From contig CM119371.1 of assembly GCA_051294905.1 (NCBI GenBank), positions 32,552,001 through 32,616,000 on the forward strand: DNA of 64,000 nucleotides, written 5' to 3'. The notes beneath the pieces are model-generated. The model was given only the letters and a program-made list of their open reading frames with translations, did no database searches and was not told the DNA's origin. A program made the position numbers and the translations under genes. The stretch is from Botryllus schlosseri. Taxonomy: Eukaryota. This document shows positions 4,748 through 51,349 of the stretch, in pieces; position 1 is the stretch's first letter, and each line of letters opens with the position of its first letter.

Positions 4748-6280
4748 ACATTTATGTTTTTTGATGACAGCATGTATCTTCATGTGAAGACGGAGGTTAT
4801 TCTTCTGGGAGAATACCTGGCCACATATATCACGTTTACCACTTTTTCTTCCATCATGAGTATCCATATGACGACTAAGGTCACGCTTCTGAGTAAATGC
4901 TTTCCCACATACATCGCATTGATGATTTTTGGTGCCGGAATGCATCTCCATATGAAGCTTTAGCACATTCTTCCTAATGAATGGTTTACCACAAACATCA
5001 CATTCATGTTTTCTGACACCAGCATGCATATCCATATGATAATTGAGGACAGGTTTATGAGTAAATGTTTTCCCACATACATCACATCGATGATTTTTGA
5101 TGCCAGCATGTATAACCATATGATTTCTGAGGTAATTTTTACGAGAAAATGCTTTACCACATAAATCACATTCATGATTTTTGATGCTTGAATGCATCTC
5201 CATATGAAGCTCTTGCTCATATTTCGTGATAAACGGTTTACCACAAACATCACATTCATGTTTTTTGACACCAGCATGCATATCCATATGACGCTTGAGG
5301 CTCTGTTTCCGAGTAAATGCTTTCCCACATACATCACATTCGTGGTTTTTGATGCCAGCATGCATATCCATATGAAGCTTGAGGTCACCCTTCCGAGTAA
5401 ATGCTTTCCCACATACAGCACATCCATAATCTTTGATACCAGCATGCATATTCATATGTTGCTTGAGGTCCAGTTTATTAGTAAATGCTTTTCCACATAC
5501 ATCACATTTATGTCTTTTAATGCCAGCATGCATATCCATATGACGTTTGATGTGACCATCCTGAGTAAGTGCTTTTCCACATACATCACATTTATATTTT
5601 TTGATGCCAGCGTGCATATTCATATGTCTCCTGAGGCCATCCTTCCCAGTAAATGCTTTCCCACATACATCGCATTCATGATTTTTGATGCCAGCATGCA
5701 TATCCATATGACGTTTGATGTGATCATCCTGAGTAAATGCTTTTCCACATACATCACATTTATATTTTTTGATGTCAGCATGCATATTCATATGTTTCCT
5801 GAGGCCACCCTTCCCAGAAAAGGCTTTCCCACATACATCACATTCATGATTTTTGATGCCGGCATGCATATCCATATGACATTTGATGTCACCATACTGA
5901 GTAAATGCTTTTCCACATACATCACATACATGATCTTTGATGCCAGCATGTATATGCATATGTTTACTGAGGACATGTTTCTGGGTAAATGCTTTCCCAC
6001 ATATATCACATTCATGTCTTTTGACGCCAGCGTGCATATCCATATGAGACTTGAGGTAGCTCTTCAGATGAAATGATTTCCCACATATACGACATTCATG
6101 ACTTTTGATGCCAACATGCATATTCATATGTCGCTTGAGGTTATTCTTCATTGTAAATGCTCTCCCACATACATCACATATATGAGTTTTGGTGTACGCG
6201 TTTTGAGAGAATTCTTTTTTGGCAACATCGCATGGATGATCATTCAAGTCGTGCTGAATAGATAATTTTTCTGACTCCAT
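4745..6280 (-). CDS. ZF1: tandem C2H2 zinc-finger protein, 511 aa, 16 intact fingers plus 1 with Cys to Arg
   Basis: 28-aa CxxC-x3-F-x5-L-x2-H-x3-H repeats with AGIKNHE-type linker. 34-aa leader. Start context CGACATGG shared by all three paralogs. Confidence 0.93.
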   Translation of the reverse strand: MESEKLSIQHDLNDHPCDVAKKEFSQNAYTKTHICDVCGRAFTMKNNLKRHMNMHVGIKSHECRICGKSFHLKSYLKSHMDMHAGVKRHECDICGKAFTQKHVLSKHMHIHAGIKDHVCDVCGKAFTQYGDIKCHMDMHAGIKNHECDVCGKAFSGKGGLRKHMNMHADIKKYKCDVCGKAFTQDDHIKRHMDMHAGIKNHECDVCGKAFTGKDGLRRHMNMHAGIKKYKCDVCGKALTQDGHIKRHMDMHAGIKRHKCDVCGKAFTNKLDLKQHMNMHAGIKDYGCAVCGKAFTRKGDLKLHMDMHAGIKNHECDVCGKAFTRKQSLKRHMDMHAGVKKHECDVCGKPFITKYEQELHMEMHSSIKNHECDLCGKAFSRKNYLRNHMVIHAGIKNHRCDVCGKTFTHKPVLNYHMDMHAGVRKHECDVCGKPFIRKNVLKLHMEMHSGTKNHQCDVCGKAFTQKRDLSRHMDTHDGRKSGKRDICGQVFSQKNNLRLHMKIHAVIKKHKC

Positions 6281-7053
6281 GTCGCCCTTGTTATGGAAAT
6301 GACCGTACGATGGTGTTTATTTATTACAGTGGAATATCTGTTTTCAAGTTCAAAGTGGTTATTACATATTTTCAACAATTTCTTCAGTGTATATACCAGT
6401 AAGCTAGTTCTTTGACGGTATGGCACTGTCTGATAAATATGAAACTATGAAAGTGTCGAACTAATCTTAACAAAGAGCAGCATTAGACTGTCATTGTCAT
6501 ACTATTATATCATGCAATAAAAATATTATCACATATTTAAACAATTTGGTCGGAATTAGTCAAATAGCATCAATGCGATCATCATTTTGATCACTTTTGA
6601 ATAATTCAAACTATAGACAGATAATACCACTATGAAAAACTATTGACAAAACATCCTCAATTTACAACAAATCCCCGATCAACTGGCAAAGCAACATAGA
6701 GCTTTGTGGTAAAGGTGCATATATATCTGCTGGTGCAGAGAACGTATGGCTCATTTTTGGACACGAAATGGCCTCGTAGTTGAATCTTCAATCTCGCACT
6801 TAATTCTCGTCTTGGTTATAAATATCGCTGTAACGATTTGGTGGATTTCATAATGGCCTGAATCATTATTCTTGTGGTAGCTGAGACAAGTGTATGTGAG
6901 GTTACCTTAACATACAAAATATAGACGTATGCAAGTTAAACTCAGATGTCACTACTAAGATTTTTATTAATGTCATTTCGACACCATTGGATTTTCGAAA
7001 GGCACAATGGCACTCCGATGTAATCCGGTTTTGACAAAAATATGTATATATTA

Positions 7054-7480: not shown

Positions 7481-10400
7481 ATATATTATCCCTCAGGTAT
7501 CACACACTTACACTATCATAACATTCGGGAAATATTAGTCTTAAATTAGAATTACGTTTATGATTCACAATGAGCAGACTATGGGACTTCTACAACGACA
7601 GGCCTGTAAAGTAGGCTACAAGATGTAAAATGGCAAATGATGAAAACACCGACATTGAAAACATCTATGTCACAAACGACATGGATATTGAAAAAAAAAA
7701 TTTGACTTTGTAAACAATTTTTACACTTTTTTGTCCTAAAGCAACAATTATTACAATATTTTTACTTTTTTTGCGATGTTAAAAAAAACCTTGTCTTTAA
7801 CCATGGAAAATCGCGCTTCGTTATAAGAATTTTTTGCGTCGTGACATTCAAAAGATATTAAATAGATATTACAAGAGCGCTCTGGTGTCGTCGCGACCCA
7901 AAATTGTACCATTCGTGTCCCATACTTCAAGAACTCCTGTCCTGCAGTCATAGTCATGTTTAAAGCGTGGTAATAACCGCTGCCGGTAGGCCGATTTACC
8001 TAAAATATACGCATTTGCTCGTACTAATCATATTAAAATCTGGTCCTGTGAAGACATGTACTCGCCGCAAGCGCAACGGAGATTTTCAAGTTGAATAGAT
8101 CTCCAACAAACGACCAACGTAATATTTTAGGCCCCTTCTATCTCTCCAGAAATGGGGGTTTGGGGTGCAGCAGCTATGACCCTGGTAGATCGTCTTCAGG
8201 GGCGTCAAACATACGGCCCACGGGCCGATTCCGTCATACCAGGCCATTTTATGCGGAAGCAATTATGAGTGAATTCTTGTATTATCCAGCACGTTTACAA
8301 CAAATGTTGTTCACAGAAGCCAAAAAGCCAACGCTAGACCGTCTTGACATAAACCCAAATTGCGATTTAATACTAATGAGCATGATTTAAATATCTGCGT
8401 TTATAGTCAAACTTGAAACGAAATGGAGCATAGAAATATGCAAAGTTATGTTGTCGTTAAAGCCACTATTTCAGTGGTTTATAACTGTATTCAGCCGGCC
8501 AATCATCGTACTCTTGCCAATTCGATTGTTTGCGAATGAAGGTGTTTTTACAATGGAGCCACAAATGAACCGTAACTATCACGTACACAGGCACCTAGAA
8601 AGATTTGTGCACATTATGGCCGTCCGATCACTTCGCGAAACCCAATGATCCAATTCCCTCATCCACCACGTAGTTGGGGCGTTAGTTCCACCATGGTAAG
8701 GAATAATATAGCCATACTGTACCAGCTTCTTTAAACAATTTTTTGGTGAATGGGATAGGTCAACTACAGAGAAGTAGAGAAATATTTTTAATATGCGAGA
8801 TGTACGACTGTACAGGTACACAGTATCTCCTGCACCTATTTAATTTGCAATGTCATACAATCAATTCATGTGCTTCTTACATTGTGTGCAATGATTTCAC
8901 GGCTGGACATTTTAACCTTACGCTTTTAGAAGTAGTAGGCTATTTATGTTTCATTTGCATTTCCCAGTATCATATTCTTTGAGTTATAATTAATGTCAGT
9001 TCTTTTGTCTGGATAACATACATGTTGAAGTATAAATGCAAGTGTAGTAATGCCTTTAATTTCCTAAAATAAAGCTACACAATATGGCATCTTTACGGTC
9101 CACAATATATTTTATTAACGTTTACTAATCGCGCACAGTGTTTACAGCGTATCTTATACAATTTCTCCGTATTGCTATCCGACTAAATTACGGATCTTGT
9201 AATATGGGGATGGTGATATTGACGCATCTGGAGTCATAGCTTGAATCGAGTACCATTTTCCGAATGACCTGACTTGAGTCACTCCACTGAAATAAATCGA
9301 CTTGACTTGAGTTTGACGCATGCATATTATTAAATCATTCATGACTTGAGCGTGATTTTTTAAAAGTCTTTTAAGTCATCAACTATTCTGCCTCGCAAAA
9401 CCTCTCGATCAATAGGCATTCTATAATCCTTTATTCACTGGATTCGACTTCCGTTTACGTTTCGGATTTGTTAAGTTCGATCAGCATGCAGCGACATCTT
9501 ATTTTCAGCATTCTCATTCCATTATACACATAGAAGAGTATATTACAGCAGACAAGATTCATTTAGACAACGAGTGACGTATGTACTACCCTGGAAGAAT
9601 CCATACCTGACTATCGAAACATCAACTTCTCAACCTCTCTCATATTGGATGACTTATGGTTAGCAATCAAAGTTACAAAATATTCTAAAGACTAGTGAAT
9701 TAGACAACGAGTACACGCCGCGCACAATATGTGCAATATTTTCAACACAGACCTGCACAAATTAGGCTACTGCATTTTCAATAAGCGCAGCTACAATTAC
9801 TACTACAAATACTCAATTTTTGAAACTAGCAATTAGAACTAAATACAGAACTACTCACTTTTCAAACTACGCACTCATAACTAGAACTGGAACTAATTTT
9901 TTAAAGCCCGCAACTAGAACTAGATCTAGATCCAGCTAGAACTAACGACATTGCAAAATTAATACACCGCTGAATATATAGCAAAATTTTGACTTGACCC
10001 GCGAACCTATATTCACTGCTTCTTATTCTCTGAAAAATAATTTCATTTTACTAGGGGACACATTGATTTTTATTTTGTCGGAAATACTATACACGGAATC
10101 GTCATTCCAAAAGGAAGTGATTCGAGTTTGAAATGGGAGAGATTTCGACCCTCAAACCACACCCGCTGGCTACGCAACTGTCAACAGTGATGGCTTTGAG
10201 CTATCAAACGGTGCATAAAGATCATTCAACAGAACACCGGTATATCGAATCACGCAAAACGACAACACGGGCCTTTTAGTTGTTTGGCAACTAATATTCT
10301 TCAAATGCGAAACTAGAACTAGAACTATAGAACTACTCACTTTTCAATATCCGCATTTAAAAATAGAACCACTCACTTTTCAAAATCCGAAAATAGAACT

Positions 10401-11828
10401 AGAACTAGAACTACTCCGTTTTTAAAATCTTCAACTGGAAATAGGACTTGAACTACTCAAAACACCGTTAGTTATAGTTGAACGGCAACCAACTAAACGA
10501 GTAATGTGTACAAGCTTTTTTCAACAGTTTAACTATGACTTAACCCTCAAGTAATATAAAATAAATTAGTAGGGTATTTCAACAAATACGAATCCAAGCT
10601 GCATCGTAAATCAATTCGAGTAGATTTCATACTCGAAATGCTGGTACGCTATATGATCCATTTTTCCAGCGACAAATGATATTGACATGCTTTTAGATAA
10701 ACATTGTTTTGTCAAATTCTACACTGGTTTCTGAACATTATCCCTGGCGCGTGTGCTATCATGTGTATGGTAATTTTAGAGGGTATCAGGCAAAATGGTC
10801 ATATTTCATCATAGGATACGTATCAGGGTACAAGTAGCACACATTACCGATTCCATAAACAATATTCTATATTCGTAATCGCGCTATCTTCCCAATGTAA
10901 AATATATCGCATAGCAAGCTATCTGGAAAGCAGGGTTAGCCTGACTAATGCTGACTATGAGCTTCCCATAATACTCACGTTCAGATAGACTACCGATAGC
11001 GTCGCTAACACCGTTAACGTGCATAGCGAGCTTTTACCTCGATTTTGTAAGTCACGCGACGATGCATGAAACAGACTGAAGCCGGATGTAATTTAATGCC
11101 AAACCCCCATGCACGAATCGCGTTAACGCGCTGCGCGTGTACAGCTGTGAAAATGCTGATAAATCAATGGCCAGTTCCCTGAACAATGAATACTCTTAAT
11201 AGTGATATACGTGTGGCTATCAACCATTTTCAAAGTGATCTTTTTATATTGTGTTGTACCTACAACTGTTGCAGCTTACTTTTATTCATAAGTAGGCCTA
11301 TATGACAAGAGAATCATATTGAAATCATAGTTGTACTTTGAACTATGTCCTGTTTGCCTTTAAAGTTTTATTGCAAACAGTATATATATATATAAATTCA
11401 TTGGCATAAACATTAAATATTGCACCGTGTTCAGTTGACATACTAAATCACATGATCCAACATGCACTCAGTAGTAACTATTTCTGCGGTACGAAAATGA
11501 CCATCATTTATAATATAACGTTACAGATTTGCACTTTGCCGTACATGGGCTACTCGAAATAATGCTCGGAGGTATCGGGCTACAAACATTGTCCACACAA
11601 AGGGGAAACAGTAGATAAAATCTTATGTAGGTGATAAATGAGGCCACAATACCCTGATCTCAATCAAAACAGTTGCAAAGTAATATTCATATAACGTACA
11701 ATGTACATCATGGATAGAGTTGTCTCGATGATTTTAAATCTAAGCATGTCATTGGGAGGTATTTGAAAGCCAACGTCGTCTTCTAGAAACTTTTTAATAC
11801 CTATATTCAAACGAACGTCTTGCTAGTG

Positions 11829-13733: not shown

Positions 13734-14747
13734 TTGGGAAACCTAATACATGCTATAACTCGGTCAGTGTATGAGAACGCAAAAATACAGGGAAGACACA
13801 TTATAACAGTGCTTTTAAACCTTTTGGGATACCAATTCGCCCTTTTTCTTGGATAATGAATTTCATTCGCTCAAATCAATCAAAAATTGGTATAGTTTGC
13901 CTGATGTCTTGGGAAATAAGCTCCAACACGATCACTGAGAGTAGGCACATTAGAGCTCGCTACCTTATGATACGTTTCTCAGATTAGTGTTTTGTTTTTA
14001 TTTTTCGATTTCCCATTCCCTGTCTCGCGAGGTAATGGGAAGAGCAAAGATCTACCCCTAGAAACTTAATAACAGTTCGAAAACCTTCAATAACCAACAA
14101 CCTGCTTCTTGGACCACTAGAAAAACCAGAGATTTTGTGGCATCACGCGACTCGAACCTCACACATGAAAAATATGGCATTATGGCAAACTACCGAACGT
14201 GAAGACCACAATTGTACGCAACGCGAAACATGTCTGACGCACGCGATTACGAATAGGTGCGATTTAAATTCCTCTGCTCGTCACTACTGTCTTCTCAGAT
14301 TGCAAGAACGGGACTATTAGGTGCAGTGCAGACTGCCGACAACGGAGCGTATCCATATCGCAGGCTTCTGCTATCCGATGACGGTCATTTTTGGCTAAGG
14401 TTTTGTCGCCGCTGATGTTTTGGCACCGCATTTTATCAGCGGTATGTTGGCCAAAACTTTACATCTTCATTGGCCCCGACATAGAAGGGGTTGTCCTCGA
14501 AATAAATGTGTCTCATAGGCCTGAACGCGCTCGTTGCACATCCCTACATTAGTTCATCTCAAGGTTATTCGGCCACGTCTTTCAGAAAACCAGTCGTAGA
14601 AATGCTATCATGAACTCGAACCATAGAACGCAGATTCTCATGATCAAGCCATATTTACTGCGTGTCTCAACAGTGACCTTTATGTAAAGACTATCGCAGG
14701 ATTTTTTTGCAATAAACTCGACAAATACTACATATATATCAATAGAT

Positions 14748-15410
14748 CAGTCGTTCCTTTTTGTCTTCGCGGACCCCTTTGAACCGTGATCGACCCCGCG
14801 GACCCCCTCTCGTTTTAGTTCAAATTTAGCTCATTTATCGTACAACCGTCATCTATCTTGTGCAAATATCAACTCAGGGCTAGTGATAAACCGCAACAAA
14901 ATGACCGTTCTTGAAAACAATATCATACTATATGTAGAAATATGGATATACTTTTTTTTTATTACGGAGGGACTTCTTTAGCTGTATTTCTTATTTCTTG
15001 AAATATGTGGTCGTGTCCTAAAAATTCCCGCCTTCGATTTCATATGAACCAGTGCCGAAAATGCATTTCCACAAAGGTAGCTGAAGGCGAATGTAATATT
15101 AACGACTGACGCTTCCGAAGACACCTTTGAGCACGATCGCAACATATATGCCATCAAAATTGAGAATCAAATTTTTAATGAAGTTATCACTTCCAGACTA
15201 GTCATTTCTATATATCAGCTAAACTTCAAGATATTCTGGAATAGGGGTCATGTATATCACAGGAGAATATGGATTCCCTGATGAGGTTTTAATCTCTTTT
15301 TTTAGATGAAATAAAAAATACTCTTTTTAACAGACCTCAACAAAACATCTTTAAACAGCAATATATTTGTATCAGTAGGCTATTGGCAACTTGGAAATTG
15401 AAATGAGTTC
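14748..15410. mobile_element. Partial hAT MITE, same family as 11829..13093
   Basis: Starts CAGTCGTTCCTTTTTGTCTTCGCGGACCCC. Body similar to 44717-45120. Right end not resolved. Confidence 0.6.
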
Positions 15411-24670: not shown

Positions 24671-24800
24671 TCAGTCAGGATTTTTGACGCCTGAATGCAC
24701 ATTCATATGATGCTTGAGGTCGCCCTTCGTAGTAAATGTTTTCCAACATCACATTACATTACATCACATTCATGATTTTTGGTGGGAGCATGTAAGTACT
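24671..24800 (-). pseudogene. Dead terminal finger of ZF2
   Basis: A 4-nt and an 11-nt insertion. Remnant reads HAPTKNHECDV...KTFTTKGDLKHHMNVHSGVKNPD* (TGA 24671-24673). Confidence 0.85.
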
Positions 24801-25573
24801 TGCATGTGACGCTTGAGATCACCCTTCTTCTTAAATACTTCCCCACATACTTCACATTCATAATGCTTAATGTAAGCATGTCCATCCACATGACGCTTGA
24901 GGTTACTTCTATGCGAGAATGATTTGCCACATATATCACATTCATAATTTTTGATGCTAGCATGTATATTCATATGATAACCGAGGTTACCCTTCTGGGT
25001 GAATGCTTTCCCACATATATCACATTCATGATTTTTTATGCCAGCGTGCATGTCCATATGAAGCTTGAGGTCAGTCTTCCATGTGAATGCTTTATCACAT
25101 ACATGGCATTTATGATTTCGGATGCCAGTATGTATATTCATATGCCGCTTGAGGTAACCCATCCTAGTAAATGCTTTCCCACATACAGTGCACCCATGAT
25201 TTTCAATGCCACAATGCACATCCATATGACTCTTGAGCTCGCCCTTCGTGGTAAATGCTTTCCCGCATACATCACATTCATGATTTGTGATGCTAGCATG
25301 AATATCCATATGACACTTGAGGTGCGCCTTCCTAGTAAATGCTTTCCCACATACATCACATTTCTGATTTTTGATGCCAGCATGTATGTCTATATGACGT
25401 CTGAAGTTATTCTTTAGAGTGAATGCTCTGCCACATACATCACATCTATGATTTTTCATGGGAACACGCACGTGCGTATGAATCTTGTCAATTTTCTGAG
25501 AAGACTCTTTCCTGGAAATATCGTTTGGGCGATCTTTCAAGTCCTGATCAACAATTGATTTTTCAGATTCCAT
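24770..25573 (-). CDS. ZF2: C2H2 zinc-finger protein, 267 aa from MESEK, 7 intact fingers, 8th broken by a frameshift
   Basis: Same finger and linker consensus as ZF1 and ZF3. Start placed at the ATG shared by all paralogs, although the ORF is open to 25672. Could be a young pseudogene. Confidence 0.85.
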   Translation of the reverse strand: MESEKSIVDQDLKDRPNDISRKESSQKIDKIHTHVRVPMKNHRCDVCGRAFTLKNNFRRHIDIHAGIKNQKCDVCGKAFTRKAHLKCHMDIHASITNHECDVCGKAFTTKGELKSHMDVHCGIENHGCTVCGKAFTRMGYLKRHMNIHTGIRNHKCHVCDKAFTWKTDLKLHMDMHAGIKNHECDICGKAFTQKGNLGYHMNIHASIKNYECDICGKSFSHRSNLKRHVDGHAYIKHYECEVCGEVFKKKGDLKRHMQVLTCSHQKS

Positions 25574-25987
25574 GTCGGTCTTTTTGTGGAAATGATCATA
25601 GGAGATCCACATAACGTTTTTATTTATTACACTGAAGATAATATATGATTCCAAGTTCAACGTGTTTAACATACATTTTTAACAGATTGTCTTACCACAT
25701 GAAACTTACTCTCCCTCCTGATACTCATCAGGGAAATCGTCAGCAACCGGAAGTGAATTGGATGGAACAATGTATCACCAAATATGAGGTCACATGCATG
25801 AAATTTCAAGGAATTGGGACGAAAAGACCGTTTAAGCTCAATGTACGGTTATTAGATAAAAGACGAAATCCTTTTGCTGGCACAAACTAGCTTAGCGTAT
25901 TTTGACGAAAGTCGACTCATAGGAACAAAGAATAATGAGTGACCAGCCTCTCGCGACAAGTGACGAATTCGACGAAATAGTAGTATG

Positions 25988-30186: not shown

Positions 30187-33120
30187 AATTTTGACTTGAC
30201 CCGCGAACGTATTCAATGCTTCCCATTCCCCGAAAAATAATTTCATTTTACCAGGCAACACATTGATTTTTATTTTATCGGAAATAATATACACAGAATC
30301 GACATTTCAAAAGGAAGTGCTTCGAGTTTGAAATAGGAAAGATACTGACCTCCAAACCCCACCCGCTGGCTTCGCCACTGTTAGCATTTATGGCCCTGAG
30401 CTACCAATGGCTGCATAAAAATCATTCAACAGAACAAATGGTATCTCGAATCACACAAAACGACAACACGTGCGCTCTAGTTGTTCGGCAACTAATATTT
30501 CTTCAAATGTGAAACCAGAACTAGAACAAGAACTACTCACTTTTCAATATCCGCAATTAGAACTAGAACCATTCACTATTCAAAATCTGAAACTAGAACT
30601 AGAACGGGAACTATTCAGTTTTTAAAATCTGCAACTGGAGAAATAGGACTAGAACTTCTCAAAACACCGTTAGTTATAGTTGAACGGCAACTAACTAAAT
30701 GTGTAGTTTGTTCAAGTCTGATTAAACAGTTTAACCATTACTTAACCCTCGAGTAATATAAAAAAAATAGCATTTCAATAAATATTAATCCAGGCTGCAT
30801 CGTAAATTAAATTCGAGTAGATTTCATATAGTCGAAATGCTGGTACGTATGATCCTTTTTACGAGCGACAAATGATATTGAGATGATTTTTGATAAATAA
30901 TGTTTTTTGAAATTCTCTACTAGTTAGTGAATATTATCTATGGCGCGAGGGATATTATGTGTGTGGTCATTTCGAAGATATAAGGCGAAATGGGCATGTT
31001 GCATCATAGCCTACTTATCAGGGTACAATTGGCACAGTTCCCGATTCCATAAACAAGATTCTATAGTCATAGTTGCGCTATCATCCAAATGTAAAATATA
31101 CAACTGAGCAAGATGTCTGGAAAGCTAGGTTAGCCTGACTACTGCTGACTATGAGCTTCTCATAGTACTCACGTTCAGATAGACTACCGAAATCTTCGCA
31201 TGGCGAGATTTTACATCGATTTTGCAAGTCCCGTGACGATGCATGAAACAGACTGAAGCCGGATGTAATTAAATGCTAAACCCCATGCATGAATCGCGTG
31301 AGCGCGCCTCGCGTATATAGCTGTGCAAATGCTGATAGATCAATGGCCAGTTTCCTGAACACTGAATACTCTTAAAAGCGATATACGTGTGGCGATCAAC
31401 CATTTTCAAAGTGATCTTTTTATATTGTTTTGTGCCCTACAACTGTTGCAACTTACTTATTTTCCTAAGTATATGACAAGAAAATTGTAAATGTACTTTG
31501 GACATTGTCCTGATTGCCTTTAAATCAATATTCCAAACGGTACATATATATGAATTCATCAGCATAAACATCAAATATCGCACCGTGTTCACTTGACATA
31601 CTAAATCACATGATCCAACATGCACTCATTGGTTACTATTTCTGCTGTACTAAAATGACTATCGTTTATAAATTATAATATAACGTTTCAGATTTGTACT
31701 TTGCCGTACATACTCGAAACAGTGCATTAAGTAATGCGCGGAGGTATCCGACTACAAGCATTGTCCACACATAGGCGAATCAGTAGATACAATCTTATGT
31801 AAGTGATAATTGAGTCGACAATACCCTGATCGCATTCAAAACAGTTTCAAAGTAATATTTATAGAATGTGCAATGTACATCATGAATAGAACTGTCTCGG
31901 GTATTTATATCATCGCATGTCATAGGGAGGTATTTGAAAGCCAACGTCGTCTTCCGAAATCTCTTTTATACCTATATTCAAACGAACTTCTTAGTAGTGA
32001 ATTTCGTCATCCACCGCCGGCGACTTCCACGCCATAACCGAGTGTGCAAAAAGTAGCTAGTATGGGAAACCTAATACATGTTCAAACTCGGTCAGTATCA
32101 GAACGCAGAAATGCAGGAAAGACACATTATAACAGTGCTTTTTAACCTTTTTGGATACCGATTCGCACTTTTGTTTTGTAATTGAATTTCATTCGCTCAA
32201 ATCAATAAATATTGTTATAGTTTTCCTGATGTCTTGGGAAATAAGCTCCAGAGTAGACTCATTAGAGCTCGCTACCTTATGATACGTTCCTCAGACTTGC
32301 GTTCGGTTTTTATTTCTCGATTTCCCATTTCCTGTCTCGCGAGTTCATGGAAAGAGCAAGGATCTCTCACTCGAAACTTAATAACAGTTCGAAAAACTTC
32401 AATAACCAACAACCAGCTTCTTGAACCACGAGAAAAATCAGAGATTTTGTGGCATCTCGCCGAGCCTCACACCTGGAAAATATGGTATTTGTAATATTAC
32501 AGTTGCATGCCACGATTTTAAGGACATTCATAACATTAACTACCGAACTTGCAGAACACAATTGTACGCAACACGAAACGTGTCTGACGTACGTGATTTC
32601 AAATAGGAGTGATTTAAATTCCCCTGCTCGTTACATTTGTACTACTGTCCACTCAGATTGCAAGAACAGGACTATTCAGTGCCAACCGCCGACAACAGAG
32701 CGTATCGATTTGGAAAGGCTTGGCCATCCAGCGACGGTCATTTTGACCGTGCTTTTGTCGCCGCTGATGCTTTTGGCACCGCATTTTATCAGCGATATGT
32801 TGGCCAAACTTTACATTTTCCGGTGCCCCGACAAGCCAACATAGAAGGGTCTGGTCTCGAAATAAATGTGTCATGCGGTCGTTGCACAGAAATGCACACC
32901 CCTACACTAGTTCATCTCAACGGTCTTCGACGACGTCTTTCAGAAAACCAGTCGTACAAATCCTATCATGAATCCAAACCAAAGGTCGCAGATTCTCATG
33001 ATAAAGCCATATTTTTGCTTATTGGATATAGTATGCAACAACAGTGACCCTGGATATGTAAAAATCATCGCCGGATTTTTTGCAATAAATTAAACAAATA
33101 CTACATACATATCAATAGAT
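30187..33120 (+). repeat. Segmental-duplication block upstream of ZF2, paralogous to 9984..14747
   Basis: Colinear similarity throughout. Lacks the insertions seen in the ZF1 copy. Confidence 0.9.
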
Positions 33121-33565
33121 AGTTCTGGCAACGTGTCGACCTAACATCATATACTCTTTGCGGCCAATACTTTAATAACCCTTGAAGGGGTGAGAATTTG
33201 CGCTGCAGTAACTTGCGAATGTGAGTCTGTAATGTTGGTACTAATCAATGAGCTCTTACATTGTTGTGCAACGTTATTCGACTCAGCTAGATTGACAGTC
33301 ATATATACAACAATTTCATGGGGTTGGCAGCAGTGGCGTAGCAGCAGGTGCTGCCACCCATGGCTTTTCTTGAAAGTGCCGCCGCATAAGCACACCGCAG
33401 CAAATTTCGACATAGTTTCCTGTTCGAGCACTCTTTTCAATAAAAATAATTACAAATAATATGCCGCGTATCAGAAGTTCTATGTTGCTTGAGAAAGAAG
33501 CCCATCTCAGCGTTTATAATGCCAAAAACAATAATGACAAGAAATTGAGAACGAATGTATTAGTC

Positions 33566-36177: not shown

Positions 36178-36578
36178 AGTGTTGCGGCGCTCCGATTAAT
36201 CGGAACAATCGGTCTTGACGGCTGTTTCGGATTGGTTCAATTGTCATGCTCACATTTTAATTTGTGTTTTCGGAATCAGTGCGACACTAGCTTTTGATTT
36301 AGACCAGTTGATCAAATTTGAGGTCTCGGGGTCTTCAAAATGACTTCTTTTCTCTATTTGTACTGGCTACTTGATAAAATTGTTAGGTTAGCTAATTTAA
36401 GCCTACACGCCAAATTTGGTTCAATTCCAACCAGTATAGCCTCATTGCTACAGGAGAAATAAGTTTCTGTTTATCACATAAAAATAAATACCAATATAAT
36501 TGAAAATTATCTGTTCGCTCCATCAAAGTGTTAGGTTGTTTACAGAAACGATGTTCACCAAATTTGGTTCAAACCCAA

Positions 36579-37151
36579 TTTAACGCAGAGCGAATGTTTG
36601 TAGTTGTATAATTGTATATCTGACTCCAAGAAAGGTTGCGTTTACAATTCGCTGCGTGTTTCTTCTTTCGTTCGACGGACCGGCGTACGGCCTTTCGTAC
36701 GGCCTTGTTGGCTGACGTACCACGAAGCCTGTCTCTTGCACACGTATTCGATGGATCACACTGACGAATATATTTTGTTTCCGTCTCCCCGACTTGTAAC
36801 TTTATTGAATGTCACGTACGGTTCAAAATGCAATATATTTCTCGCAATTGGTGAAGTACTTATGAATGTCTATCGACTTCCGAACCAGCTAATAATCATG
36901 AATGTATATCAACTTCCGAACCAGCTAATAATCATGAATGTATACATCAATGTCTCTACGTGGTATTACACACGTATATCTCGAAATGAACCCAACGTCG
37001 TACGATTTCATATTTCGTTATCTACGTTCACACGACAAATTATACGGCTCACAAAGGTATTATCAGGTTTCAGTTCAGGGAATTAGGTAAGGTTCACAAC
37101 ACTCCCTATTGCTCAAATCTAAAAATGGTGTGAACAATATATTTCGTTAAA
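36579..37151 (-). repeat. 3' LTR
   Basis: Termini TTTAACG...CGTTAAA. Internal 36-bp tandem repeat at 36862-36945. Minus-strand AATAAA at 36801-36806. Confidence 0.95.
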
Positions 37152-37153
37152 AG

Positions 37154-37162
37154 TTCCCCCTT
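37154..37162 (-). promoter_or_regulatory. Polypurine tract
   Basis: AAGGGGGAA, 2 nt before the 3' LTR on the minus strand. Confidence 0.75.
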
Positions 37163-38266
37163 GCTACCCAAAAGAACTTGGTGTAAAAAAAAACGAATAT
37201 ATTGTTCAAAATGTTCGGTTATAAATTCCCCCTTTCAGCCAAAGAACTTTGTGTAAAAAAAAACCGAACATACCGTTCAAAACCTTCCATATTGGTCAAT
37301 ATCTCATACCTAGGGACATACGACATATGGACGGGGGCTAACCATAGGGACTGAAGCTAATCCTAGGGATTGGAGACAGGAAACGATTTTATATGCAGGG
37401 GCAAAAGTAAACTAATGAAACGACATACCATCCAAGCGTGGCATTCGGAAACCCTAAATTACATAACCATCCCGGGATGACACGAAATCACACCATTACG
37501 CCCTAGAGGCAACTGAAACGCAAACCAACCATATTAAGCGTTCAAAGACAACTAAAGAAATAAAAGACATTAACTAGCACAAAAGCGGTACTATCAGCAA
37601 CATTAAAGATCACATCGCATGTAATCAACAAGTTAATGAAAATTTATAATAAAGAACAACAAAATGAAACACAATACAATGCAAGTCATAGACGAAACCA
37701 GTCTATATGCACTGACGAATGCCATCACGTGTATGCAAGGTCAACACCATAATTCATCCAGCAATCATGCTTCAAAACCCACAGAACATGCTATTCACTG
37801 TCATCAATCACTTCTTTTTCTACTTTCTCATTATTACTGTCAACCCGTCCAGCGGGAACAGCAACCATTCCTACCAAATCCGTGTTGTCTGTACACAACA
37901 ACAGAGGGCTTATGGCAATCCCACAACCATTCTACAGTGACCATTTCAAATATGACGCAAAGTTCCGTGAAGCATAAGCGGGCCTACACGAGCCTAACAT
38001 TCTGGTGTCCGCACATATTACTACAACGCATACCTTAGCAACGAGCTTCGGTGACCCCCACCTTACATTCTACGACGGGAGTCACAACATGATGCAGCAA
38101 TCCTGCATTTACATAACATATCACTGTATAAAGCGCAATTTAACCGCGCCTATCTTTACTTTACGTTTATGCGATTCAACAATCGATGAAGCAGCAATCC
38201 TGCGTTTACACACATATCAATGCATAAGGCACAACTTTCATCACGCATATCTTCATTCTACGCGAT

Positions 38267-38545
38267 TTAATGCAACACGTAATCATTCAAATGTCTTGGT
38301 CTAACAATTCGTCTCCCTCTGGACGTATATCTTGGACTTGACTCGTTTAGAGTTCTGCCTTCACTACATGTTTGGGTCATAGCGTTATCGTCCAAAATGG
38401 ATTCATGCCCACGATTATCGCGATCGACATCCACAGGTACGCATTCATAGATACGCTCTCGGGACGCGCTACCAATACTACTCGGACAATCGCTCTCGGG
38501 ACGCGTCACTAACACTACCCGGACAGTCGCTACCGCTGTCATCAC
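38267..38545 (-). pseudogene. Integrase C-terminal tail relic
   Basis: Ends RYTSRGRRIVRPRHLNDYV, like the TRSGRxVRxPxRxxDY tail of many Gypsy pol proteins. Confidence 0.65.
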
Positions 38546-39282
38546 AACTAGACAAAATTACATGTACGTCACCCGGATTTCCCGCGGAGTTTACAAATCA
38601 ACAACATTAGGCGATCAAAAAAAAACACAAACATCACTTAATACCACAAAACAACACATACACGATATTACGGCAACATTAAAGGATACATTACATTGGG
38701 CATTCAGAACACCGATAATATCACTCGCACACGAACTAATCAGCAAGACACTGTTATGGGTATTAAAAGGCCTAAATTCACTTGCAATCATTTTATTCTA
38801 AATTGATATGAAACTTCCTAATTCATATCACGTAGCATTTAACGTTGATATATACCAACCGAACGAGAGTGTGCCCTATTTATTGTATTACATGCAAAGC
38901 AATGTTTGCAAATATCATGCACTACCGCGGTGCATATTTTCTCAATGATATACTCAACATAAGGGTATCGTCGTATGGCAGAGGCCTAATATCTCTTCAT
39001 AAGGCTTGCAATATATCATTATTCATCACACGTACATATCAAGCTATTCAGCTATTGGATGCATCATGGCATCGAATAAATAGGGTAGCCTTCTTGCCAC
39101 GGGTTTACCCGCACACATCTCTTAACAAAACATCATGCTATATAAGCACCTGCGTCATACATCTGCAAGCAGCGCAGTATTTGACCCGCAGGAAATGCGA
39201 CCCCTACCTGGGTAGAGAAACCAATGATTGCAAGTTACTCTACTAAACTATACTTTGTCAATATCCCAATAACAGCAACCAA

Positions 39283-39708
39283 CTAACGTCGTAGTGCAAG
39301 AGCATAAAATCGATCTACCTTAAATTTTTCTAATCCGTGTGATGCATTAATCAGCGATTTCAGAGCTCTGGGGTTCATGCCCGGAACTGTCTCGGCATAA
39401 AAGTTATTCCACTTCTGATCAATCGGAACATCAAAACGGTCCAACAGAACCTTTTTAAGCAAGTCGTAGCAATTAGGATCATGTGGGCCTGGAATACTTC
39501 CATCGATAGCGGCTAAGTGTGCGTCATTCAAGTTCCTCAACAAGATTAGATATTTAGCTTTTTGCGACCGCACATTTTCGCCCTCGAGCTGATGTTCAAA
39601 TATTCTGAAATACAGCGCCGGTTCCTGCTTGTTAAAAGGTCGATCGATAGTGATCTCGCGAGAAGTGAATCTATCCAGAGATTCATTGTCACTACTTTCC
39701 ACTCCCAT
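39283..39708 (-). CDS. Truncated Gag (N-terminal capsid-like domain, DUF7041-like), 141 aa
   Basis: PFNKQEPALYFRIFEHQL...RSQKAKYLILLRNL...PNCYDLLKKVLLDRF matches the PFWxxxPxxWFxxxExQF...KF...L...YxxLKxxLxxRF pattern. It is the first Gag-like ORF after the leader. Confidence 0.8.
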   Translation of the reverse strand: MGVESSDNESLDRFTSREITIDRPFNKQEPALYFRIFEHQLEGENVRSQKAKYLILLRNLNDAHLAAIDGSIPGPHDPNCYDLLKKVLLDRFDVPIDQKWNNFYAETVPGMNPRALKSLINASHGLEKFKVDRFYALALRR

Positions 39709-40489
39709 TTATGACAGTGAATAGCAATTGCTCATGCGAGAATTGAAAATGATTACCTTTTCGTTGCCCGTACACGCAAATGTCGTACGGCACACAGACG
39801 AAGGTTCCGCAGCAATAACAGCTCAGCTTCTAGCACGAATTATTGGCTATATCACTGAGAAAACAAAATTAAAGTAAGCCACATGGAATTTACACCGAAA
39901 TACTAGAAATCATCTACTTTTAATTTACTTATTTAATCGGAACTGGAATACTCACACCACTATACACATTTACAACTTATCTCGACTCTCTGACATGACT
40001 CAAAGAATGAATTCTGATATTTATGCAATTCACTACACACTCCACCGTCTCTGAAACCGAAATAAAATGCAAAGCCCTCTCCGGGAATGCTACTTAACTT
40101 CAAAATATGGTACAATCCTCCGTATCTTCTGCGCAGGCGCTCTTCGTTGTCAATTCTTCTTGCGAGAACGTCGCGATGCCTTTTGTTTCCGTCGTCGCTG
40201 TATTGCTGATTGATCTTTCTCGCCGTTGTGCAAGGCGAATCTTCGATTGTCAATTCTTCTTGCGAGAACGTCGCGATTACTTTTGATGTCCGTCCTCGTC
40301 ACTGATTGTTGATTGAACGTTTTCACCTTCGTGCGATGCGTATGGTCTTTCTCGCCGCTGTGCAAGGCGAATCTTTATATTTATCGTGTCCGTGGTCCGT
40401 TGCTATATTGCTCTTTCTCGCCGTCGTGCAAGGCGAATCTTTATATTGATTGTCTTCTGTCGGTCGGCCGGTCGGTCTTGATTGATTGA

Positions 40490-40506
40490 ACGTCGGGAGG
40501 TCACCA
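40490..40506 (-). promoter_or_regulatory. Primer-binding site, tRNA-Trp-like
   Basis: TGGTGACC(TC)CCGACGT, 1 nt after the 5' LTR. The tRNA-Trp complement is TGGTGACCCCGACGTGAT, so this has a 2-nt insertion. Confidence 0.8.
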
Positions 40507-40507
40507 C

Positions 40508-41080
40508 TTTAACGCAGAGCGAATGTTTGTAGTTGTATAATTGTATATCTGACTCCAAGAAAGGTTGCGTTTACAATTCGCTGCGTGTTTCTTCTTTCGT
40601 TCGACGGACCGGCGTACGGCCTTTCGTACGACCTTGTTGGCTGACGTACCACGAAGCCTGTCTCTTGCACACGTATTCGATGGATCACACTGACGAATAT
40701 ATTTTGTTTCCGTCTCCCCGACTTGTAACTTTATTGAATGTCACGTACGGTTCAAAATGCAATATATTTCTCGTAATTGGCGAAGTACTTATGAATGTCT
40801 ATCGACTTCCGAAACAGCTAATAATCATGAATATATATCAACTTCCGAACCAGCTAATAATCATGAATGTATACATCAATGTCTCTACCTGGTATTACAC
40901 ACGTATATCTCGAAATGAACCCAACGTCGTACGATTTCATATTTCGTTATCTACGTTCACACGACAAATTATACGACTCACAAAGGTATTATCAGGTTTC
41001 AGTTCAGGGAATTAGGTAAGGTTCACAACACTCCCTATTTCTCAAATCTAAAAATGGTGTGAACAATATATTTCGTTAAA
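40508..41080 (-). repeat. 5' LTR
   Basis: Direct repeat of 36579..37151 with the same TTTAACG...CGTTAAA termini. Confidence 0.95.
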
Positions 41081-41767
41081 CCCAAGTCGTGGAAGCGGAG
41101 TTATTGCAGTCGCTAAATTTGGATTTGAATAAAATAGTAATTACGGTCGGCACCACTATAATAAATATTTGAAGAATTGGTCACCGTAAATACTATTTTA
41201 TTCATAATCCAAATTCTTCGACGGCCATAACTTCGCTTCCACTGGTTGGAATTGAACCAAATTTGGTGAACATCGTTACTATAGACAGCCTAACAATTTC
41301 ATGGGGTGAACAGAAATTTTCAAATTTTTTGGTATTTATTTATATATAGTAAATAGAAACTTTCTTCTCTTGTAGCAATGCGTCTACTGGTTGGAATTGA
41401 GCCAAAGTTGGTGTGTAGGCTTGCATTAGGTACGGTTCTCAACATTAAATGACTTGGGAACCCCTGTGGCCGAGCTGGGCAATTATTTTTCTGAGAATAA
41501 CAAGCAGAAATACGTTGAAGGATAAGTCAAAAGTTGGCACTATATGTGGTGCATGAATTCTAAAATGATGTTAGTCTGAGTTTTAGTTCTAGTAGCGGAT
41601 TTTGAAAAGTGAGTAGTTCTAGTTTTAGTTGCGGATTTTAAGAAGTTGTTAGTTCTAGTTTTAGTTTTAGTTATCGTTCCTGGATTGAAAAATAATGAGT
41701 AGCTCTAGTTCTAGTTCTAGTTGCCCTTTTTGCACATCGAGTAGTTTGTACAAGTCTGTGCACGAGT

Positions 41768-46425: not shown

Positions 46426-48294
46426 TCATCCATGATTGTTGCTGCCAGTATGCACATTCATATGTCGCTGGAGGTTATTCTTCTGAGTAAACGCTCTCCC
46501 ACATAAATCACATTTATGATTTTTGATGCCACCATGTATATACATATGAAGCTTGAGGAGACCCTTCTGAGAAAATGCTTTACCACAAACATCACATTCA
46601 TGTTTTTTGACACCAGCATGCATATCCATATGTTTCCTGAGATTATTTTTTTGAGTAAATGCCTTCCCACATACATCGCACCCATGATTTTTGATGCCAG
46701 CATGCATATTCATATGAAGCTTGAGGTCTCCCTTCTGGGTAAATGCTTTCCCACATACATCACATCCATGATCTTTGATGCCAACATGCATATTCATATG
46801 ACACTTGAGGTGATCCTTCCGAGTAAATGCTTTCCCACATACATCACATCCATGGTCTTTGATGCCAGTATGGATATTCATATGTTGCCTGAGTGCATGT
46901 TTATAAGTAAATGCCTTTCCACATATATCACATTTATGTTTTTTGATGCCAGCGTGCATCTTCGTATGAACCCCGAGGCTCTTCAGCTGGGCTAATGTCT
47001 TCCCACATACATCACATTTAATACTTTTGCTGCCAATATGCGTTTTCATATGACAATTGTGATCAATCTTCCTAATGAATGCTTTCCCACATATCTCACA
47101 TTGATGTTTTTTGACGCCATCATGAGTATTCATATGAATTTTAAGGCAACGGTTACTGGTAAATGCATTATCACATACATCACATTTACGATTTTTGATG
47201 CCGGAATGCATCTCCATATGAATATTGAGGTCATTCTTCCTCAAAAATGGTTTACCACAAACATCACATTCATGATTTTTGACACCAGCATGCATATCCA
47301 TATGAAGGTTGAGGTGGGCCTTCTGAGTGAATGCTTTCCCACATACATCACATGCATGGTTTTTGATGCCAGCATGCATATACATATGTCGCCTGAGTTT
47401 GTTCTTATCAGTAAACGCCTTCCCACATACATGACATTCATGATTTTTATTGCCAGCATGCATATCCATGTGACACTTGAGGTGAATCTTCTGAGTAAAT
47501 GCTTTCCCACACACCTCACATTCGTGATTTCTGATGCCAGCATGGATACTCACATGTTTCCTGAGGGTATTTTTCCGAGAGAATGCTTTTCCGCATACAT
47601 CACATTTATGATTATCGATGCCTGAATGCATATCCATATGAGCATTGATTTCAGCCGTTCTGATAAATGTTTTACCACATACATCGCATTCGCGATTTTT
47701 GATGCCTGAATGCATCTCCATATGAACCTTGAGTTCATTTTTCCTCATAAATGGTTTACCACAAACATCACATATATGCTTTTTGACACCGGCATGCATA
47801 TCCATATGAAGATTGAGGTCGCCCTTCTGGGTAAATGCTTTCCCACATATATCACATCCATGGTCTTTGATGCCAGCATGGATATTCATATGTTGCCTGA
47901 GGTCATGCTTATAAGTAAATGCTTTTCCACATATATCACATTTATGTTTTTTGATGCCAGCGTGCATATTCATATGTTGCCTGAGGCTACTCTTCTCAGC
48001 TAATGCTTTCCCACATACATCACATTCATGTCTTTTGACGCCAGTGTGCATATCCATATGAGACTTGAGGTGGCTCTTCAGATGAAACGATTTCCCACAT
48101 ATACCACATTCATGACTTTTGATGCCAACATGCATATTCATGTGTCGCTTGAGGTCACCCTTCATAGTAAATGTTCTCCCACATACATCACATATATGAG
48201 TTTTGGTGTAGACGTTTCGAGAGAATTCTTTTTTGGCAACATCGCATGGATGATCTTTCAAGTCGTGATTAATAGATAATTTTCCTGACTCCAT
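46426..48294 (-). CDS. ZF3: tandem C2H2 zinc-finger protein, 622 aa from MESGK, 21 fingers
   Basis: 21 x 28-aa repeats, all with both Cys and both His. 34-aa leader nearly identical to ZF1. ORF open upstream to 48366. Confidence 0.95.
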   Translation of the reverse strand: MESGKLSINHDLKDHPCDVAKKEFSRNVYTKTHICDVCGRTFTMKGDLKRHMNMHVGIKSHECGICGKSFHLKSHLKSHMDMHTGVKRHECDVCGKALAEKSSLRQHMNMHAGIKKHKCDICGKAFTYKHDLRQHMNIHAGIKDHGCDICGKAFTQKGDLNLHMDMHAGVKKHICDVCGKPFMRKNELKVHMEMHSGIKNRECDVCGKTFIRTAEINAHMDMHSGIDNHKCDVCGKAFSRKNTLRKHVSIHAGIRNHECEVCGKAFTQKIHLKCHMDMHAGNKNHECHVCGKAFTDKNKLRRHMYMHAGIKNHACDVCGKAFTQKAHLNLHMDMHAGVKNHECDVCGKPFLRKNDLNIHMEMHSGIKNRKCDVCDNAFTSNRCLKIHMNTHDGVKKHQCEICGKAFIRKIDHNCHMKTHIGSKSIKCDVCGKTLAQLKSLGVHTKMHAGIKKHKCDICGKAFTYKHALRQHMNIHTGIKDHGCDVCGKAFTRKDHLKCHMNMHVGIKDHGCDVCGKAFTQKGDLKLHMNMHAGIKNHGCDVCGKAFTQKNNLRKHMDMHAGVKKHECDVCGKAFSQKGLLKLHMYIHGGIKNHKCDLCGRAFTQKNNLQRHMNVHTGSNNHG

Positions 48295-48669
48295 GTCGCT
48301 CTTTTTATGGAAATGACAATGGTGTTTATTTATTACAGTGGTAATAATATCTGTTTTCAAGTTCAAAGTGGTTATTACATATTTTCCACAATTTTTTCAG
48401 TGTATATACCGGTAAGTAGTTCTATGACAGCATGGCATGGTCCGATAATTATGGAACTATGAAAGTGTTGAACTAATCTTAACAAAGAGAAGCATTAGGC
48501 GGTAGAGAGCGCCATTGTCATGTTATTATATCTTGCAACAAAAATAATATAACATATTTTTACAATTTGATCGGATTTAATCGAATATCATCAATACGAT
48601 CATCAGTTTGATCACTTTTGATCAAATCAAAATATAGTCAGATAGTAACATTATAAAAAAGGTAATGAG

Positions 48670-51281
48670 TAGGGCGATTTTTTTTTGACCTAAAAAACGG
48701 AAGATTTTGACCTAAAAAATCTAAATTTTGACTTTTTTTGACCTAAAAAAACTGAAATTTGACCAAATTTTGACCTTACGTATGCAAATTAGGTGTTTGC
48801 GCACATAATATCAAAATTGTACTACTTATCTTCATTTCTGGTTGGAACTGTCTGTCCTTACAAAGTAGATTGGCCTGGAAAAACGTTTTGGGCACAAAAA
48901 CTAGCAAATTTTACATGAAAAAACGATTAAATAGTATATTCATATTGAAATGAACCGGAATATTTTCGGCTGACACTCGTCCGGGGTAATCGTCAGCAAC
49001 TCGTAGAGAACTGGAAAGAACATGGTATATCAACAATCGTATCACAAAATATGACGTCATTTTTGTGATTTGGAGTCGACTTTTATCAAAATACACCAAC
49101 CAAAACTCTGTCAAAAAAAGGAGTTCGTGTACCACCTAAAAATAGTACATTGAACGCTCTCTCTTTCATGCTGGTGACGTCATATTTTGTGAAACGATTG
49201 TTGATATACCATGTTCTTTCCAATTCTCTACTAGTTGCTGACAATTACCCCTGACGAGTGTCAGCCGAAAATATTCAGGTTCATTTCAGTATGAATATAC
49301 TATTCAATTGTATATTGAAGTTCTGTACCTCCAAGAAGCCCATGAAAAAAGTAGTATTTTCACGAAATCTGGCCCTATGAAGAATGCCAGTAGTTACATT
49401 ACGTATTATGGTGGAAATAATTAAAATTTGTTGTAGTACAACGAACGAAAGATAGCTTACTTTCCTACATTCTCGGGTAGAAAGTGTTTGTCCTTACTAA
49501 GTTGCTTGCCAAGAATGGAGAAAGAACGTTAAACAGCAGCGGTGTTTGGCTGACAACACTGAAGTTGTGTGGACACTGCTGGTGACACACCGTGTTGCTT
49601 CATTCTGACAATGTTGTCTATATTACAATTTTTCAGCTTGCGCTTGTTGATATATAAGAATCATGCAATGTCCAAGCAGTCTTGCTTCATTTAGGATATT
49701 GCGGCACGTTGACCATAAAACCATGTCACTATTTGTTTCATTTGATCGTTTATGATTAGGGCGATTTTTTTTTGACATGTCAAAAAAAGTCAATATTAGG
49801 TCAAAATTGTAGCGTTAGGTCAAAATTTGTCAAAATTGTTTACAAAGTCAAACATTTTTTGACCTCTGAATTTCGTTTGTATCGTAGATTTTGCGCTGTC
49901 GGTGAGCTTATCACTTGATATTTCACAGCTTATAGCCTACTTTATAGGCCTACCGTTGTAATCGACCCATCGTCATGCTCATTGTGAATCATAAACGATC
50001 AAATGAAACAAATAGTGACATGGTTTTATGGTCAACGTACCGCAATATCCTAACTGAAGCAAGACTGCTTGGACATTGCATGATTCTTATATATCAACAA
50101 GCGCAAGCTGAAAAATTGTAATATAGACAACATTGTCAGAATGAAGCAACACGGTGTGTCACCAGCAGTGTCCACACAACTTCAGTGTTGTCAGCCAAAC
50201 ACCGCTGCTGTTTAACGTTCTTTCTCCATTCTTGGCAAGCAACTTAGTAAGGACAAACACTTTCTAACCCGAGAATGTAGGAAAGTAAGCTATCTTTCGT
50301 TCGTTGTACTACAACAAATTTTAATTATTTCCACCATAATACGTAATGTAACTACTGGCATTCTTCATAGGGCCAGATTTCGTTAAAATACTAGTTTTTT
50401 CATGGGCTTCTTGGAGGTACAGAACTTCAATATACAATTGAATAGTATATTCATACTGAAATGAACCTGAATATTTTCGGCTGACACTCGTCAGGGGTAA
50501 TTGTCAGCAACTAGTAGAGAATTGGAAAGAACATGGTATATCAACAATCGTTTCACAAAATATGACGTCACCAGCATGAAAGAGAGAGCGTTCAATGTAC
50601 TATTTTTAGGTGGTACACGAACTCCTTTTTTTGACAGAGTTTTGGTTGGTGTATTTTGATAAAAGTCGACTCCAAATCACACAAATGACGTCATATTTTG
50701 TGATACGATTGTTGATATACCATGTTCTTTCCAGTTCTCTACTAGTTGCTGACGATTACCCCTGACGAGTGTCAGCCGAAAATATTCCGGTTCATTTCAA
50801 TATGAATATACTATTTAATCGTTTTTTCATGTAAAATTTGCTAGTTTTTGTGCCCAAAACGTTTTTCCAGGCCAATCTACTTTGTAAGGACAGACAGTTC
50901 CAACCAGAAATGAAGATAAGTAGTACAATTTTGACATTATGTGCGCAAACACCTAATTTGCATACGTAAGGTCAAAATTTGGTCAAATTTCAGTTTTTTT
51001 AGGTCAAAATCTTCCGTTTTTAGGTCAAAAAAAATCGCCCTATTTATGATTCACAATGAGCATGACGATGGGTCGTTTACAACGGTAGGCCTATAAAGTA
51101 GGCTATAAGCTGTGAAATATCAAGTGATAAGCTCACCGACAGCGCAAAATCTACGATACAAACGAAATTCAGAGGTCAAAAAATGTTTGACTTTGTAAAC
51201 AATTTTGACAAATTTTGACCTAACGCTACAATTTTGACCTAATTTTGACTTTTTTTGACATGTCAAAAAAAAATCGCCCTA
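48670..51281 (+). mobile_element. 1.3-kb hAT-type non-autonomous element (outer copy) containing an inverted copy of itself
   Basis: TIR TAGGGCGATTTTTTTTTGAC. Perfect TSD GTAATGAG at 48662-48669 and 51282-51289. Empty site in the ZF1 flank near 6640. Confidence 0.95.
49757..51042 (-). mobile_element. Inner inverted copy of the same element
   Basis: Both TIRs present. Perfect TSD TTTATGAT at 49749-49756 and 51043-51050. About 99% identical to the outer copy. Confidence 0.95.
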
Positions 51282-51349
51282 GTAATGAGAGAACATTATA
51301 AATTTTCAACAAATCACCCATCACCTGGCAAAGCAACGAAGAGCTAGGT

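Follow-up and report, generated by a model that had tools for sequence, protein, structure and literature searches.

A CsRn1-like Ty3/Gypsy element with TTTAACG...CGTTAAA long terminal repeats and a U5 block complementary to tRNA-Trp in Botryllus schlosseri

We analysed a stretch of 64,000 nucleotides from Botryllus schlosseri (NCBI GenBank assembly GCA_051294905.1, contig CM119371.1, positions 32,552,001 to 32,616,000 of the forward strand), here called the window and numbered from its first letter, which carries a long terminal repeat (LTR) retrotransposon on the minus strand. An ungapped comparison identified two direct LTRs of 573 nt each, the 3' LTR at 36579-37151 and the 5' LTR at 40508-41080, which differ by 8 substitutions and no insertions or deletions (1.4%) and whose identity breaks off on both sides at the LTR edges. 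Both LTRs start with TTTAACG and end with CGTTAAA, and the element is flanked by a duplicated CCCAA (36574-36578 and 41081-41085). This comparison recovered the LTR pair, terminal motifs and target-site duplication that had been described in an initial annotation made from the sequence alone. A primer-binding site starts 1 nt past the 5' LTR, and 2 nt separate the end of a polypurine tract from the 3' LTR. This gives the element the arrangement of an LTR retrotransposon, with direct LTRs, a duplicated target site and, adjoining the LTRs on the inside, a primer site on the 5' side and a polypurine tract on the 3' side. An AATAAA motif lies at LTR position 346 (40735-40730 in the 5' LTR). Together with a gag frame that matches the Pfam family DUF7041, these features bear out the annotation's identification of a Ty3/Gypsy-type LTR element with ends other than CA. 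They also agree with its remark that LTR finders requiring TG...CA termini would miss the element, since neither end has a TG or a CA.

The element has inserted into an arm of a host foldback repeat of the type of a miniature inverted-repeat transposable element. The left part of this repeat (36392-36578) belongs to a family that is present at high copy number in the reads, and the right part (41086-41429) was delimited by alignment of the arms. When the element is removed, the interrupted arm gives an 81% alignment with the other arm over 350 columns. The sequence might alternatively be a DIRS-type tyrosine-recombinase element or a segmental duplication and thus not an LTR element made by an integrase, but the TTT start, with which DIRS elements begin, is all that speaks for this. 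Set against the direct LTRs, the duplicated target, the primer site, the polypurine tract, the DUF7041 gag and the host site restored on removal of the element, such an origin is extremely improbable.

The initial annotation had regarded the boundaries as independently fixed, and for the U5 end (36579/40508) this holds: at this position the host goes on with G instead of the element's T, and at its internal copy this end gives way to the primer site. If the U5 end is kept constant, A-runs on either side allow a duplication of 3, 4, 5, 6, 7 or 8 bp, and each of these leaves an identical empty site. Colinearity with the other foldback arm therefore cannot fix the U3 edge, and this part of the earlier statement does not stand. 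The joined U3 end is AA-3' under the 5- and 6-bp readings and TA or TT under those of 7 and 8 bp, while the 4-bp reading requires one unmatched G. Only the 5-bp reading yields LTRs of equal length with perfect 7-bp inverted ends. From the base composition of the window, the chance of a 5-mer duplication at a fixed place is ~8e-4 and that of a 7-mer inverted end ~1e-4. Under no reading do the ends become TG...CA, as the junction between polypurine tract and U3 has no TG and the junction between U5 and primer site has no CA. The internal LTR ends have no contact to host DNA, and junction repair therefore cannot explain them. Mutation after insertion does not account for the non-CA ends either, as had been noted before.

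The freedom at the U3 edge allows for an alternative in which the ends are likewise not CA but the edge and stagger differ, the LTR starting as TTAACG with a 6-bp duplication or as AACG with 8 bp, or the element belonging to a 4-bp family and having an irregular junction here. Each of these lengths is consistent with the sequence as well as with the empty site. Furthermore, PwRn1 and 14 mosquito CsRn1-like elements, which have TGT...AAA or TGT...ATA ends and a tRNA-Trp primer site, are reported with 4-bp duplications (PMC2582038), which is the rule in the CsRn1 group. The fly element CsRn1_Cv1 has 3 bases between its purine run and its TG start, compared with 2 in our element under the 5-bp reading, and over ~12 nt the left flank is similar to the LTR end. 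However, equal LTRs with perfect 7-bp inverted ends are obtained with 5 bp alone. In the 4-bp version, the extra G mismatches the base on the side of the polypurine tract, and chance must account for the C that the two flanks share at a position at which the nearest host variant carries T. We therefore consider a different U3 edge unlikely and prefer the 5-bp reading.

The polypurine tract (9 nt, 37154-37162, minus strand) lies within a predicted hairpin (37128-37212), in which the first ~20 nt of U3 pair with an upstream inverted copy (z -5.8 compared with 200 shuffles). A second, diverged copy of this 70-nt unit is found at 37214-37282 on the same strand and has its own shorter inverted repeat (fold z -1.7). 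Within the combined region (37128-37282), the stem of the second unit is different but self-complementary, and TATAAC is found where the LTR reads TTTAAC. Short tandem or near-tandem duplications occur elsewhere in the element, namely in U3 (36862-36944 and 40791-40873), in the 5' leader (40135-40447) and in the 3' non-coding part (38084-38253 and 38454-38531).

The internal region encodes a truncated gag (P0001, 141 aa, 39283-39708, minus strand) that comprises the N-terminal part of the capsid and lacks the CHCC knuckle. P0001 matches DUF7041 above the cut-off (E 2.5e-9), and its Atlas neighbours are DUF7041 and Retrotrans_gag. On the same strand, a stop-to-stop frame of 96 aa (38267-38557) has an integrase-C-terminal-like end: it gave Atlas leads to integrase C-terminal families at 0.76-0.82, below the threshold of 0.9, and had no match in Pfam. 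Its end carries what we take to be an integrase C-terminal tail motif, and from its sequence the frame is probably a pol remnant. No frame for reverse transcriptase or the integrase core was found in this copy. As the gag stops early and both enzymes are lacking, the element is internally deleted and non-autonomous.

An unfiltered protein search with the gag returned 6 matches, of which 5 are real; all 5 match DUF7041, 4 of them above the cut-off. The motif CX2HX9CX3C (CHCC), described as the Gag signature of CsRn1-like elements (PMC2582038), is present in 2 of the 5, at 28-29% identity to P0001. In the element itself CHCC is absent from all three minus-strand frames, the gag frame stopping before that region. 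The top match of the search, P0002 (3274 aa), was dropped, being a tandem-repeat protein with no matched stretch. No homologue of P0001 was found among 372 candidates of longer length or 19 of near length, while a gag profile search retrieved 6 gag-only proteins, 2 of which were already in the query. A search for P0006 in viral contigs gave 8 pattern matches, none of which was confirmed. With regard to the ends, CsRN1 attachment motifs have been given as TGTGGYG and MSYYAMA (PMC3601003), and the U5 end fits the latter at 7/7 positions. For the Zam motifs the element scores 4/8 and 2/5, and it does not have AGT...AnT ends. The element thus resembles the CsRn1 group of Ty3/Gypsy. We refer to it as CsRn1-like rather than assigning it to the group, because it departs from the TG start and the 4-bp rule and lacks a reverse transcriptase.

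The primer-binding site (40490-40506, minus strand) is of tRNA-Trp type and contains a 2-nt bulge. Its first 8 nt are identical to the published CsRn1 site (PMC2582038), and its distal 8 nt are complementary to the tRNA-Trp gene of contig L062, which is not the host's own. A further stretch complementary to tRNA-Trp was identified in U5 (40548-40570, minus strand), 40 nt upstream of the LTR end and primer site and 3' of the AATAAA, with a copy recognised by the same alignment in the 3' LTR (36619-36641, minus strand). This U5 block consists of two 10-nt stretches with a 3-nt spacer and is complementary to nucleotides 26-51 of tRNA-Trp on the element's RNA strand. Against two tRNA-Trp genes it reached an alignment score of 31, which was attained by 0/2000 and 1/2000 dinucleotide shuffles, while the best other of 212 window tiles scored 24 and six other tRNAs aligned to the block with scores of 14-18. 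The predicted duplex of the block with tRNA-Trp has an energy of -35.5 kcal/mol. As a pattern, the block was found at 3 genome-contig loci, 2 of which are tRNA-Trp(CCA) genes. The compared genes are not the host's. As they were retrieved with the window motif itself, the match is partly by construction, and the independent point is that the tRNA is of the primer's isotype. Other copies have single-base deletions at 36631, 40558 and 40560; these lie within the spacer and would make the pairing longer.

No stable fold was predicted for the region of U5 and primer site (z +1.7), Rfam gave one chance match only on 40400-41100, and no tRNA genes were detected in the window. A separate observation concerns contigs L062 and L064, which were assigned to bacterial genome bins but each contain a tRNA-Trp gene that seems to be eukaryotic in type, in L062 within a cluster of 7 tRNA genes; these eukaryotic-type genes are probably contamination.

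By analogy with the primer activation signal (PAS) of retroviruses or the bipartite sites of Ty1 and Ty3, the U5 block suggests an extended interaction with the primer, and complementarity to the same tRNA makes it a likely second primer-pairing site. It may instead be a neutral relic, left either by a piece of the primer tRNA that was picked up through template switching or by a tRNA-derived short interspersed nuclear element or a Helenus-type promoter. This would concern only the priming and is compatible with how we read the ends. The same orientation would be expected if the primer had been reverse-transcribed, captured tRNA pieces in Gypsy elements (PMC3286476) and tRNA-like LTR sequence in Helenus (PMC10886601) are on record, and no relative with the U5 block was found among 23 metagenome loci matching the primer-site and U5 pattern. 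These loci had no gag match and no similarity to the element, and 2 of them carry tRNA-Trp genes. On the other hand, the best alignment covers tRNA nucleotides 26-51 only, without the A and B boxes that Helenus has kept, the tRNA is the same as the primer and matches 40 nt from the primer site, and the block is exact over 10 + 10 nt within an otherwise variable family. A relic is for these reasons somewhat doubtful, and a second site of primer pairing remains our preferred interpretation of the block.

To look beyond this insertion, we compared 4 of 24 listed read runs (X1, X5, X7 and X19). The element was covered in 30/30 bins in X1 and X5 and in 26/30 bins in X7, while X19 yielded 0 reads. 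The marine-metagenome entries in the list have small shares and are not taken as evidence of habitat. The reads contained 403 substitution sites, of which the 40 best supported were considered, and the element family is multicopy and variable. In X5 and X7, near-fixed differences at 37121 and 37129 mark contigs that apparently reach across the U3 edge, and among the best 40 of the 403 sites there was no difference at the terminal bases 37149-37151. Both observations together are a weak sign that other copies may have the same ends. Searches with gag homologues, profiles and viral contigs found no autonomous partner. Scans of the viral contigs for the primer site gave 60 + 1 loci, none with a gag match, and a scan for the U5 motif gave 0 loci.

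These results also bear on whether any lineage with changed specificity exists. This copy, or a small non-autonomous subfamily, could have lost a canonical U3 end during replication, and an ordinary TG...AA or TG...CA integrase would then have inserted it inefficiently. That the element is defective, that the gag and viral-contig searches found no partner, and that non-canonical ends in lotus are polyphyletic and mostly of recent origin (PMC9804982) would all fit such a loss. In contrast, the family is multicopy and diverse and shows no terminal-base difference among the sites just described, and the perfectly inverted ends point to selection acting on the attachment sites; we regard the loss of a canonical end as distinctly unlikely.

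The explanation that we favour, and hold to be reasonably probable, is that of a recent, internally deleted, non-autonomous CsRn1-type Ty3/Gypsy element that was mobilised in trans, with both ends joined as AA-3' at a 5-bp stagger and with tRNA-Trp held at two places. The partner would have an integrase of the CsRn1 kind that already joined an AA-3' U5 end and tolerated a U3 start altered from TG to TT. This change would have made the two ends perfect 7-bp inverted copies of each other, reverse transcription would have passed the changed U3 start to both LTRs, and both ends would then have been joined as AA-3' with a 5-bp stagger. Minus-strand synthesis would be primed by tRNA-Trp held at the bulged primer site and at the U5 block, the latter pairing with the anticodon arm, the variable loop and the 5' strand of the T arm, as happens with the retroviral PAS and Ty1/Ty3 sites.

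Since both LTRs receive their U3 and U5 from a single copy of each during reverse transcription, the four LTR ends represent two independent facts. The initial annotation had spoken of ends changed symmetrically at both LTRs; all four are indeed non-canonical, but they do not reflect four events. On an AA-ended background, a single change at the U3 start would suffice. The annotation's ancestral form, TGTAACG...CGTTACA, had been assumed and was not seen. The annotation had further proposed a Gypsy lineage whose integrase accepts AA, noting that known exceptions to CA are few. A Gypsy-type element with non-CA ends is what we find, but an AA-3' right end has been published for the CsRn1 group, so that this idea was half known, and errantiviruses have non-CA ends on both sides. 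The wider proposition, a CsRn1-like sublineage in marine animals that is fully off the CA rule, with AA-3' at both ends, a 5-bp stagger and a bipartite tRNA-Trp site opening the anticodon and T arms, is tentative, and we lean slightly against it.

Several observations weigh against the explanation that we favour. Flanks are known for one insertion only, and no second insertion with flanks was found: the loose ends (18 of 606 listed) were mostly host repeat with none at an LTR edge, and the joints (15 of 70 listed) were also mostly host repeat. The LTR-end patterns gave 0 loci in viral contigs and 0 in metagenome contigs, and 0 of the 23 metagenome loci for the U5 block is an LTR element. At 36573-36574, two adjacent letters differ from the nearest host-family variant in the reads, and this mismatch may mark an irregular junction. 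The U3 start TTTAACG fits the CsRN1 motif TGTGGYG at only 4/7 positions, while the rGmr1 motifs fit 6/7 at both ends. The best duplication is 5 bp in this single insertion, compared with the 4-bp rule of CsRn1, and the element has no reverse transcriptase by which it could be placed in a phylogeny. Finally, CsRn1_Cv1, whose primer site is identical to that of our element in its first 10 nt, is CA-ended (PMC3630058). Thus AA is common but not universal in the CsRn1 group.

Outside the element, the window contains three C2H2 zinc-finger array frames on the minus strand (4745-6316, 24770-25678 and 46426-48396), which have 84-nt repeats and are spaced ~21 kb apart. An inverted repeat at 48736-51295, with 99% identical arms of ~1 kb and a 229-nt centre, is probably a young foldback element, and a further inverted copy lies at 51043-51295. 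Dispersed duplicated segments of 78-85% identity were found at 9985-11828 and 30187-31999, and at 13735-14751 and 32063-33123.

The present state is one well-defined insertion with a partly precedented AA end. If the ends are family-wide, CA/CA, CA/AA (CsRn1) and AA/AA elements would provide matched natural integrases for mapping the residues that read the penultimate LTR base and set the stagger, and an AA/AA sublineage with a bipartite site would be the natural end point of a CA/CA -> CA/AA -> AA/AA series and would exemplify long upstream pairing with the primer in a Gypsy element of animals. Animal families like this one would also be missed by TG...CA filters and by lists of non-canonical ends drawn up for plants, and on the U5 block the idea of extended pairing between primer and template in such an element can be tested directly.

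Among known systems, the CsRn1 group (CsRn1, PwRn1 and AgCR-1 to -14), as far as described in the available text of the sources, is most like our element, sharing a tRNA-Trp-type primer site, a DUF7041 gag and an AAA-3' U5 end; the closest gag matches of the element include two with CHCC. The group differs in its TGT rather than TTT start and in its 4-bp duplication, compared with a best fit of 5 bp here. Unlike the group, the element has perfect 7-bp inverted ends, and this copy lacks pol and the CHCC region. The block complementary to tRNA-Trp is not mentioned for the CsRn1 group in the available text of PMC2582038 and PMC3601003. We considered CsRn1_Cv1 as a precedent for an AA end and rejected it, as its 3' LTR reads TGTGGG...CTACA (PMC3630058 supplement 2). 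The 6-bp duplication reported for that element (PMC3630058) may in our reading consist of 4 bp and a TG that belongs to the LTR, and the deposited 5' end lacks the first TG. The AA-3' U5 end is already known from the CsRn1 group, whereas the TT start and a 5-bp duplication in such elements are, as far as we found, undescribed. In literature that was mostly open-access and did not cover Repbase, we found no description of a Gypsy element with TT...AA ends.

Non-canonical ends are also known from more distant elements. The errantiviruses (gypsy, ZAM and Idefix) are likewise Gypsy elements without CA on both sides, and ZAM has 7 complementary terminal bases (PMC5408687, PMC3601003). They differ in their AGT...AnT ends (PMC5408687), in belonging to another gag family and in being target-sequence specific. 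Plant non-TGCA elements similarly have non-canonical termini that are missed by TG...CA filters (10.1101/137141; PMC9804982), but these are mostly Copia, and the eight lotus Copia types listed in the available text have a purine in second position and do not include TTAA (PMC9804982).

For the U5 block, no tRNA-Trp-complementary counterpart was found described in the mostly open-access literature. The Helenus TRIMs (miniature retrotransposons with terminal repeats) share with our element a tRNA-like sequence in the LTR of a non-autonomous element (PMC10886601). In Helenus, boxes A and B are kept as an RNA polymerase III promoter, and complementarity to its primer site is lacking (PMC10886601), whereas the match in our element lacks these boxes, is antisense to the element RNA and has the primer's own isotype. 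In addition, our element measures 4.5 kb and carries a gag, while Helenus is <1 kb and without a coding remnant. Closer parallels are the retroviral PAS/A-loop and the bipartite sites of Ty1 and Ty3, in which the T arm or the anticodon of the primer tRNA is paired with template sequence that lies beyond the primer site (PMC11181671; PMC5371799). Compared with these, the predicted pairing described here would extend over ~20 nt in two colinear blocks, spanning the anticodon arm, the variable loop and the 5' strand of the T-stem, and would occur in an animal Gypsy element.

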